Shown here: positions 1 to 559 of the stretch, piece by piece | How positions within the stretch are numbered: the first letter of the stretch is position 1 | How the letters are laid out: each line of letters opens with the position of its first letter | DNA from: a virus | DNA length: 10,004 bases | Virus genome (UHGV): UHGV-0134101 | Direction: 5' to 3' (one strand) | The notes under the pieces: model-generated | Database searches by the model: none | Told to the model about the DNA's origin: nothing | Seen by the model: the letters and a program-made list of their open reading frames with translations, nothing else | Translations under genes and position numbers: made by a program

Positions 1-175
1 AGGTAACGCAGAATACAGAAAATCGCAGGTGCATTTCTGCATCTGTGACAAGGTGGAAAGTTCAGATTGTGGTCGCATTTAAGTCCCCTTAAATGCGAAG
101 AAGTCACCAATGGGTGTTCAGGCCATCAGCAAAGAAAGTATGGACGGTTGATTCAACAAAATCAACTGAAGAGAT

Positions 176-193
176 AGGCCTCCGAAGAGGCTT
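176..193. terminator. Putative stem-loop, possibly a bidirectional intrinsic terminator, at the distal end of the leftward gene string
   Basis: 7-bp stem AGGCCTC/GAGGCTT (one G-U pair) with CGAA tetraloop, followed on the + strand by a U-rich tract TGTATGTTATTGATT. It lies about 30 bp past the stop of the 221-559 minus-strand CDS. The U-tract is imperfect in both directions. Confidence 0.3.
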
Positions 194-220
194 GTATGTT
201 ATTGATTACATTGTGACATG

Positions 221-559
221 TCACACTGCTAGTTTAGTTTCGTGCCAGCCACGCGTAACCCAGCATTGCGCATCACCGTCGCACGGACACGACTTAACCG
301 GCAGCGCATCGCCGCATTTACCGCAGCGGTTCGCGCTGATCGACTTAATGCGACCACGAACGCGGGCATCGTCCTGGCGGATCAGCATCGCGATGTATTC
401 GGCAGCATCGTACGGCGCGCGCCCAGGGCGACGGGCGGCGCAATTTCGCGCCAACATCTCCACTTCCTGCTCGTCGAGTTGCAGTTCAACCTTGCGTTCA
501 CCGGCTGCGCTCTGTCTGGCGCGCTGCGCTGCTTTGCGTTCGGCTGCGGATTTAGCCAT
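221..559 (-). CDS. Hypothetical phage protein, 112 aa, with a possible ribbon-helix-helix-like N-terminus and a Cys-rich C-terminus
   Basis: ORF track 221..577 trimmed to the ATG at 559-557, which has an upstream GAGGTG Shine-Dalgarno and a TGATG stop/start overlap with the upstream gene. Visibly GC-rich compared with its neighbours. The N-terminal segment VELQLDEQEVEMLARN...YDAAEYIAMLI fits a strand-helix-helix pattern; the C-terminus contains CGKCG and CPCDG. Confidence 0.5.
   Translation of the reverse strand: MAKSAAERKAAQRARQSAAGERKVELQLDEQEVEMLARNCAARRPGRAPYDAAEYIAMLIRQDDARVRGRIKSISANRCGKCGDALPVKSCPCDGDAQCWVTRGWHETKLAV

Follow-up and report, generated by a model that had tools for sequence, protein, structure and literature searches.

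matS, the site of the ribbon-helix-helix protein MatP, is the 13-bp sequence GTGACRNYGTCAC (PMC6907758), in which the half-sites GTGAC and GTCAC flank a 3-nt centre, and it occurs as dispersed short palindromes. The phage-plasmid N15 also carries short perfect palindromes dispersed in its genome, the sites of its centromere protein SopB. The ribbon-helix-helix repressors omega, Arc, CopG and MetJ are small proteins with operators in promoters upstream of the genes that they regulate, and the omega repressor (pSM19035) binds abutting 7-bp units. Two further precedents concern the early operon of lambda-like phages. In lambda itself, the gap between ren and ninB holds the terminator tR2. In the record of phage 82 (X92588), the DNA before the ninB homolog is annotated with putative -35 and -10 hexamers, then a 'possible regulator-binding site', a ribosome-binding site and orf33. 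Here we compare these systems with a cluster of three inverted repeats at positions 147 to 225 of the viral genome UHGV-0134101, of which a stretch of 10,004 nucleotides is hereafter called the window.

The window shows a lambda-like prophage in reversed orientation. A repressor gene of the S24-peptidase type occupies 6378-7154 on the plus strand, and facing it on the minus strand are genes for YdaT, an initiator of the O type, a loader resembling DnaC, Ead/Ea22 and DUF551, after which comes the ORF at 221-559. Positions 1-165 have homologs in phi80, HK639 and phage 82, where the matching DNA lies directly before ninB. The exact 221-559 protein is indexed in 127 blocks of the assembly collection, and in all four of the contigs shown, NinB, NinE, NinG, the Q antiterminator, holin and lysozyme follow 238 nt past the identical gene. 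The first-pass annotation had placed the cluster at the distal end of a leftward operon; the genes do run leftward in window coordinates, but because NinB through Q and the lysis genes continue downstream in these four contigs, the site lies in the middle of a lambda-pR-type early operon, in the same gap that holds tR2 in lambda. BLAST breakpoints fall at ~124 and ~178, and the gap is therefore a mosaic seam. Two candidates from related regions were set aside: for put-type antitermination, the window has in common only the last ~55 nt of the putL-like element of HK639, and the HusR site near rusA (PMC12844172), which sits between ybcO and rusA, has no relation to the gap examined here.

The features of the junction are as follows.

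212-225, no strand: perfect 14-bp palindrome TGTGACATGTCACA, with a conserved core GTGAC-AT-GTCAC at 213-224; proposed site of the 221-559 protein.
221-559, minus strand: gene for a 112-aa protein of PHROG 536 (N15 gp46 / epsilon15 gp49 type); the mechanical ORF reaches 577.
176-193, minus strand: predicted intrinsic terminator hairpin at the lambda tR2 position, AAGCCUC-UUCG-GAGGCCU then AUCUCUUCAG; 5 bp pair.
178-191, no strand: GCCTCCGAAGAGGC, 14 bases common to both parental terminators and the crossover zone according to locus comparison.
147-166, no strand: inverted repeat GTTGATT-N6-AATCAAC, a candidate operator that overlaps the -35 hexamer and the spacer.
137-165, minus strand: putative sigma-70 promoter, with -35 TTGATT at 165-160, a 17-nt spacer and -10 CATACT at 142-137.
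104-132, minus strand: leader hairpin 1, loop CCUGAACA(A/C), the 'possible regulator-binding site' of the phage 82 record.
73-98, minus strand: leader hairpin 2 (IR4 in phi80), with 11-bp arms and a GGGA loop, enclosing the Shine-Dalgarno sequence and AUG of an orf33-like ORF.
1-78, minus strand: start of the orf33/YlcH-like small ORF, MRPQSELSTLSQMQKCTCDFLYSALP..., similar to orf33 of phage 82 and running past the left edge of the window.

All three inverted repeats of the first-pass annotation were found in the sequence. The leftmost, GTTGATT (147-153)-N6-AATCAAC (160-166), is a perfect 7-bp repeat, one base per arm longer than had been given; the second is AGGCCTC-CGAA-GAGGCTT at 176-193; and TGTGACATGTCACA at 212-225 is a perfect palindrome that spans the TGA stop (223-221, minus strand) of the ORF at 221-559, as had been noted. 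A perfect 14-bp palindrome is contained in 49% of dinucleotide shuffles, and the window has a second one at 7518. The window has 17 inverted repeats with 7 or more bases per arm and no more than 8 in the loop (6.1 ± 2.8 in shuffles), and the first 225 bases hold 5 of the 17. Because shuffles often yield such a palindrome, the window sequence by itself is only suggestive: in this single window no repeat is clearly above chance, and it is the relatives that give each repeat its meaning. An Rfam search of the whole window, with E values up to 1, gave no match within 1-300. The sole Rfam match in the window was a 16S-like piece at 9635-9681. Comparison with relatives indicates that the three repeats are unrelated to each other and do three different jobs at one junction. 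We think it rather probable that the cluster marks the seam of two exchangeable modules in a lambda-pR-type early operon, at which the palindrome would be a protein site, the hairpin a chimeric terminator and the dyad an element overlapping a promoter.

The history of the seam can be read in the hairpin at 176-193. On the gene strand its stem is GCCUC-UUCG-GAGGC, that is 5 bp and not 7, and it reads as a terminator on the minus strand, for which the stem should be GC-rich with 5 bp or more and the loop 3-8 nt long. The tail, CUAUCUCUUC, is an interrupted U-tract that is still detected by the 5-U-in-8 scan test. The scan called the hairpin terminator-like on both strands; the plus strand folds better (9 pairs), and no plus-strand gene approaches the hairpin. 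Two parental forms were found among related loci. The gene-side form, AAGCCUC-UUCG-GAGGCUUUUUUU with a UUUUUUU tail, is present for example in Citrobacter phage Omnitron and in an E. coli TOK-001 prophage and looks, on the gene strand, like a textbook intrinsic terminator. The ninB-side form, AGGCCUC-UUCG-GAGGCCU-UUCUCUUC, pairs 7 bp in its stem, has UUUCUCUU as its tail and was found at 15 loci that carry the window's ninB-side block behind at least five different upstream flanks. To the left of the hairpin the window equals these 15 loci except for one substitution in the U-tract; from the hairpin rightward it is identical to 16 gene-side loci. Because both parental forms have the 14 bases GCCTCCGAAGAGGC in common, the crossover is placed inside the terminator, and the hairpin is best described from these alignments as a recombination chimera, with its left arm from the ninB-side module and its right arm from the gene-side module. 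The proposal that the cluster could be a module boundary is thus borne out, with the breakpoints at ~124 and ~178 and the hairpin as the recombination joint.

Homologous exchange within the 14 common bases would create such a chimera, and the terminator would close the accessory-gene block, as tR2 does in lambda. The window hairpin had a predicted fold energy of -11.7 kcal/mol; those of the parental forms were -14.1 and -16.7 kcal/mol. With its 5-bp stem and interrupted U-tract, the chimera is probably leakier than either parent; it would be expected to terminate still, more weakly. Four phages that differ in their immunity, replication and Q modules carry the identical chimera, which is therefore an established, circulating joint; these phages were found through the exact 221-559 protein, a search of species-representative genomes and viral contigs for the exact chimeric junction having returned no match. 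In its operon position, between the replication and accessory genes and ninB, and in being a GC-rich hairpin on the transcribed strand, the element resembles tR2, but there is no sequence similarity, and the window form is a recombinant whose 5-bp stem closes on a UUCG loop and whose U-tract is interrupted. The joint offers a base-level example of lambda-like module swapping inside a common regulatory hairpin, at a likely functional cost to that hairpin.

Past its terminator the window also differs from lambda in a promoter-like block, which the ren-ninB gap of lambda is without. Among 97 distinct relatives, the conserved block upstream of ninB ends exactly at ATCAA (161-165), the edge of the -35, and conservation is at a background of ~30% from 167. 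Since this edge reads TTGATT on the minus strand, the hexamer annotated as -35 in phage 82, the right arm of the repeat is the putative -35 hexamer. Both hexamers are conserved at 80-90% or more among relatives. In the window, TTGATT-17-CATACT scores 4 + 4 = 8/12, which is below the threshold of the promoter scan and went unflagged, and most relatives have TTGATT-17-CATAAT (9/12). The block is shared with phage 82 and phi80 (JX871397): the -35 TTGATT, the 17-nt spacer, the -10 (CATAAT, CATACT in the window), two leader hairpins and the small ORF are all homologous, although in these records the promoter signals are putative and the TTGAT...ATCAA dyad is without annotation as a repeat. A promoter on the plus strand with the left-arm TTGATT as its -35 was rejected because the sequence after the left arm is variable and no conserved -10 follows.

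Downstream of the putative promoter, the stem of leader hairpin 1 reaches 8 bp or more in 83 of 89 variants, with more than 10 different arm sequences around a conserved loop, and leader hairpin 2 is formed by five different stems with a constant GGGA loop. These stems were counted directly, since alignment gaps in RNAalifold had hidden both hairpins. Their covariation indicates a structured leader and so supports the promoter reading; a literature search for a description of IR4 of phi80 gave nothing usable. The orf33-like ORF overlaps the ninB start in relatives, and its continuation to that start is seen in loci L478-L481. A promoter here would restart transcription into the structured leader, orf33 and ninB and onward to Q.

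The dyad at 147-166 is likely an operator, centred near -26. Across the 97 relatives its arms (149-152 and 160-164) are at least 90% conserved while the centre, 154-157, is at 30-60%. Invariant arms with a free centre and no covariation are the pattern of a protein site and not of an RNA stem, and the left arm (148-152), which lies in the promoter spacer and is conserved like the hexamers, would make the dyad a repressor site. FNR recognises TTGAT-N4-ATCAA, and the resemblance to FNR half-sites that had been remarked on fails on spacing, as the window and the 97 relatives have TTGAT-N8-ATCAA. The broader idea that a phage regulator binds here agrees with the palindrome and is, less strongly, plausible for this dyad. 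It is also conceivable, if somewhat unlikely, that the dyad is no operator: the right arm would be kept only as the -35, and the left arm for a hairpin in read-through RNA or for an unrecognised feature of the promoter spacer. The repeat does fold as an 8-bp RNA hairpin (-7.2 kcal/mol, z = -2.6), its centre is A/T-rich and no candidate binder for it turned up; but in most relatives the stem would be of 5-6 pairs, mostly A-U, and the invariant arms lack the covariation that hairpins 1 and 2 of the same block display. The promoter-like block before orf33-ninB is conserved across different immunity regions and has a conserved dyad over its -35, which hints that the nin/Q region may receive an input of its own, apart from the main early promoter; this would bear on late-gene timing.

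Terminator and promoter are ordinary in kind, and the phage 82 record already lists the promoter as putative. The part worth following is the palindrome, which is precise, conserved, present in multiple copies and coupled to a widespread uncharacterised gene family, and whose half-sites are like those of matS. Its conservation was assessed in 80 viral loci that encode close relatives of the gene (54 distinct sequences). TGTGACATGTCAC was unchanged in ~50 of the 54, while the DNA 3' of the palindrome fell into at least 10 unrelated classes across the 80 loci, among them terminators of two kinds, a ribosome-binding site that serves the next gene, a small ORF, and promoters that carry LexA boxes ahead of umuD-like genes. 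Within the gene, the penultimate codon varies freely across these close relatives, and the last codon is GTG, TTG, ATG or CTG, so that the final residue changes and TG is constant. In the Pectobacterium phage ZF40 the gene stops with TAA and the full 14-mer comes after the stop; in one Yersinia-phage variant the palindrome is 6 nt past the stop. The overlap of palindrome and stop codon is therefore incidental.

Scans seeded with N15-like and Yersinia proteins reached divergent subfamilies; a second, profile-based scan gave close relatives only. In the N15 gp46-type subfamily the site is GTGAC-TG-GTCAC (47 of 48 loci). The Yersinia P2-like subfamily has GTGAC-GC-GTCAC and, in most cases, one more half-site 20-30 nt beyond it. 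Each of the three subfamilies thus has its own centre dinucleotide, AT, TG or GC. The comparison with related phage loci that the first-pass annotation had called for accordingly finds the core GTGAC-NN-GTCAC conserved in three subfamilies while the downstream DNA changes.

The motif also recurs elsewhere in genomes that have the gene. Five such genomes hold 13 copies of GTGAC-NN-GTCAC (0.2 expected): three each in epsilon15, ZF40, N15 and Omnitron and one in Yersinia phage 56.17. The control was lambda-like DNA collected for the ninB-upstream block, in which 1.15 Mb gave two matches, none AT-centred. In epsilon15, ZF40 and N15 the subfamily centre is common to all three copies in each genome. 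Several copies end transcription units just before terminators (at the gp18 and gp49 stops in epsilon15, after gene 33 in N15, and in the window); the epsilon15 copies are at the ends of three gene blocks, and in epsilon15-like phages two copies ~2.2 kb apart flank the terminase genes. Two copies in ZF40 and two in Omnitron are intragenic, and the window contains a single copy; both points count against the proposed reading of the cluster. Among 120 viral stretches chosen solely for the exact 14-mer, 31 also had a homolog of the gene, and in 10 of these 31 the site was 0.5-9 kb away from it. Homologs at 36-41% identity that are without the site at their stop have it 0.5-2.3 kb downstream, with an imperfect second copy ~30 nt off. 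A literature search for the 12-mer and for the 14-mer found neither in any paper of the library searched. Together, these comparisons suggest that the palindrome, so far undescribed as a DNA site, accompanies the gene for a small phage DNA-binding protein, and we infer that it is a protein-binding site tied to the PHROG 536 family.

The gene product itself has a probable ribbon-helix-helix core followed by a C-terminal four-cysteine motif. Foldseek against the PDB gave no match. Identity to the window protein is 63% in ZF40 and 34-42% in the divergent subfamilies. PHROG 536 genes are common in temperate enterobacterial phages, being found in lambda-like, epsilon15-like, N15-like, P2-like and ZF40-like members, and their existing label of 'transcriptional regulator' is a computed one only. 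For this family a precise 12-bp site would give a directly testable handle on function, and the GTGAC-NN-GTCAC motif can be searched for in any phage genome. From linkage and co-occurrence, the binder of the palindrome is most likely the product of 221-559 itself. Our closest working analogy would be a ribbon-helix-helix protein that reads abutting 7-bp units, as omega repressor does: the proteins are small and probably of the same fold, and the site is readable as two abutting inverted 7-bp units, half-sites that would suit two dimers side by side. The analogy differs in that the operators of omega, Arc, CopG and MetJ lie in promoters upstream of regulated genes, whereas the window site is at the 3' end of its own gene with copies dispersed elsewhere, and in that those repressors are without an extra four-cysteine domain. 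A protein bound to the palindrome would sit 19 bp before the terminator and ~90 bp before the next promoter start, where it could modulate transcription over the boundary, or it could connect the site to other copies in the genome.

The palindrome may instead be bound by some other protein that these phages have in common, or by one from the host. Clustering of the genes that neighbour 123 copies of the 14-mer brought out no alternative binder beside PHROG 536. Besides PHROG 536, the same clustering listed a Cro/YdaS-like gene at 12 loci and, at 15 loci, a family with the motif in its coding sequence.

Taking the 221-559 product as the binder, its role might go beyond that of a simple repressor with an operator. 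PHROG 536 proteins and their dispersed sites could form a DNA-organising or insulating system, in which protein on one to three sites at the ends of transcription units would bridge or fence blocks of the genome, as an analog of MatP/matS; such a protein might also interfere with host MatP. We regard this organising role as unlikely. The parallel with MatP lies in the identical 5-bp half-sites GTGAC/GTCAC, in the ribbon-helix-helix fold of MatP and in the dispersal of matS as short palindromes. It is offset by the length of the site (13 bp with a 3-nt centre in matS, 12 bp with a 2-nt centre in the phages) and by the four-cysteine tail that the phage protein has where MatP has its other domains. 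The palindrome sites also recall the SopB sites as short perfect palindromes dispersed in a phage genome, but those belong to another sequence family, and the annotation of epsilon15 is without partition genes. In N15 the SopB centromere palindromes, GCGACC-NN-GGTCGC, are at 33481, 35932, 41126 and 45563, and the three GTGAC-TG-GTCAC copies are at other positions.

We consider it quite unlikely that the palindrome is the site of a host protein, for which MatP, whose GTGACRNYGTCAC has the same half-sites, or a member of the CRP family would be the candidates. Identity with matS was rejected because every phage copy has a 2-nt centre in place of 3 and the 221-559 protein has no detectable sequence similarity to MatP (hhalign probability 0.2%). 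The CRP consensus is TGTGA-N6-TCACA, which spaces the centres of the two half-sites by about one turn of the helix. The CRP-like half-sites pointed out in the first-pass annotation form TGTGA-N4-TCACA in the window; all relatives keep N4 where CRP needs a 6-nt centre, so the palindrome is not a CRP site, and the half-site that is conserved is GTGAC/GTCAC and not TGTGA. Further, each gene subfamily has its own centre dinucleotide, matched by its extra genomic copies, which indicates a phage-specific binder, and palindrome and phage gene co-occur far above background.

An explanation with no binder at all is likewise improbable. The palindrome would then be a short linker kept by recombination between modules, or would hitch-hike with the 3' end of the gene. 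That similarity between relatives stops right after GTCAC in many contexts, and that the epsilon15 copies sit at the ends of three gene blocks, would agree with a linker; but 12 bases are very short for homologous exchange, and the sole crossover documented here used the hairpin and not the palindrome. Hitch-hiking is countered by eight non-coding bases that stay invariant next to a penultimate codon free to vary, by retention of the palindrome at 34-42% protein identity, and by copies kilobases away from the gene and inside unrelated coding sequence.

Least probable is that the palindrome acts as RNA, as a small stop-codon hairpin or as a stop-restart signal (UGA-C-AUG) for translation or mRNA decay, since, for all that UGA then AUG occurs on both of its strands and the stop-codon overlap is seen in most relatives and also in epsilon15 gp18, its fold (-6.5 kcal/mol, z = -0.8) is no better than that of shuffles, it stands apart from the stop in ZF40 and the Yersinia variant, its in-frame intragenic copies code for Cys-Asp-Met-Ser, and the mini-ORFs past the AUG vary in length and sequence. 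The palindrome also contains a promoter-like GTGACA-17-TAACAT, which is at chance level (1 found, 0.9 expected).

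The conserved DNA upstream of ninB, which carries a putative promoter on the minus strand, contains two leader hairpins and a small ORF with a further hairpin inside it:

104-132, minus strand, leader hairpin 1, with covarying arms and a conserved 9-nt loop, CCUGAACA(A/C)
73-98, minus strand, leader hairpin 2 (annotated as IR4 in phi80), with five covarying stem versions
1-78, minus strand, start of an orf33/YlcH-like ORF of 33 codons
24-41, minus strand, terminator-like hairpin within the orf33-like ORF, with the tail AUUUUCUGUA

More than 10 versions of the stem were found for leader hairpin 1; by direct count, 83 of the 89 variants have a stem of 8 bp or longer. 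Its loop is similar in form to the boxB loops of N-utilisation sites, and is kept in phages whose immunity regions differ. Leader hairpin 2 encloses both the Shine-Dalgarno sequence and the AUG of the orf33/YlcH-like ORF, which in relatives overlaps the start of ninB; the arrangement of hairpin and small ORF looks like a translational switch or a leader peptide. The hairpin at 24-41 lies within the 24 most conserved bases of this DNA, a stretch matched exactly over 24 bases in more than 120 viral contigs. This hairpin might work as an attenuator whose action is coupled to translation of the orf33-like ORF.

The perfect 14-bp palindrome at the 3′ end of gene 221-559 was followed into other phages. 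In several of the viral loci with close relatives of this gene, it is immediately followed by a −35 element, TTGAC(G/T), and a LexA box, CTGT-N8-ACAG, a unit that precedes a umuD-like or another gene. At these loci the palindrome lies a short way upstream of a predicted SOS-controlled promoter. In N15, exact matches to GTGAC-TG-GTCAC or to its reverse complement occur at three places (28550, 33237 and 39269). One of them follows the gene 33 stop and precedes a terminator, another is in repA and another at the gene 46 stop; they are separate from the four SopB-type palindromes of this phage, GCGACC-NN-GGTCGC (at 33481, 35932, 41126 and 45563). In epsilon15-like phages (epsilon15 itself, at 39612 and 2142, and loci L264 and L297), two copies of the palindrome about 2.2 kb apart flank the small and large terminase genes. 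Pairs also occur in three more stretches, L260, L262 and L284, which were compared for spacing (2.1-2.2 kb). The window holds one other perfect 14-bp palindrome, which is probably a chance occurrence:

7518-7531, palindrome ATGAAGATCTTCAT, inside ORF 7271-7855

A final feature was detected with Rfam:

9635-9681, plus strand, 16S rRNA-like piece of 47 nt (E = 2e-6)

It corresponds to positions 237-283 of bacterial 16S rRNA, forms the perfect hairpin GUUGGUGAGGUAAUGGCUCACCAAG, and directly follows a stretch with 98.6% identity to phage HK639. It should be located in the leftward early operon; an rRNA-like helix within a phage early transcript is odd. Positions ~9150-9622 (plus strand) are near-identical to the HK639 gene downstream of the annotated putL-like antiterminator RNA, of which the final ~55 nt alone are common to the window. 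The GC-rich segment upstream, 8990-9150, differs from HK639 and may be another antiterminator RNA.
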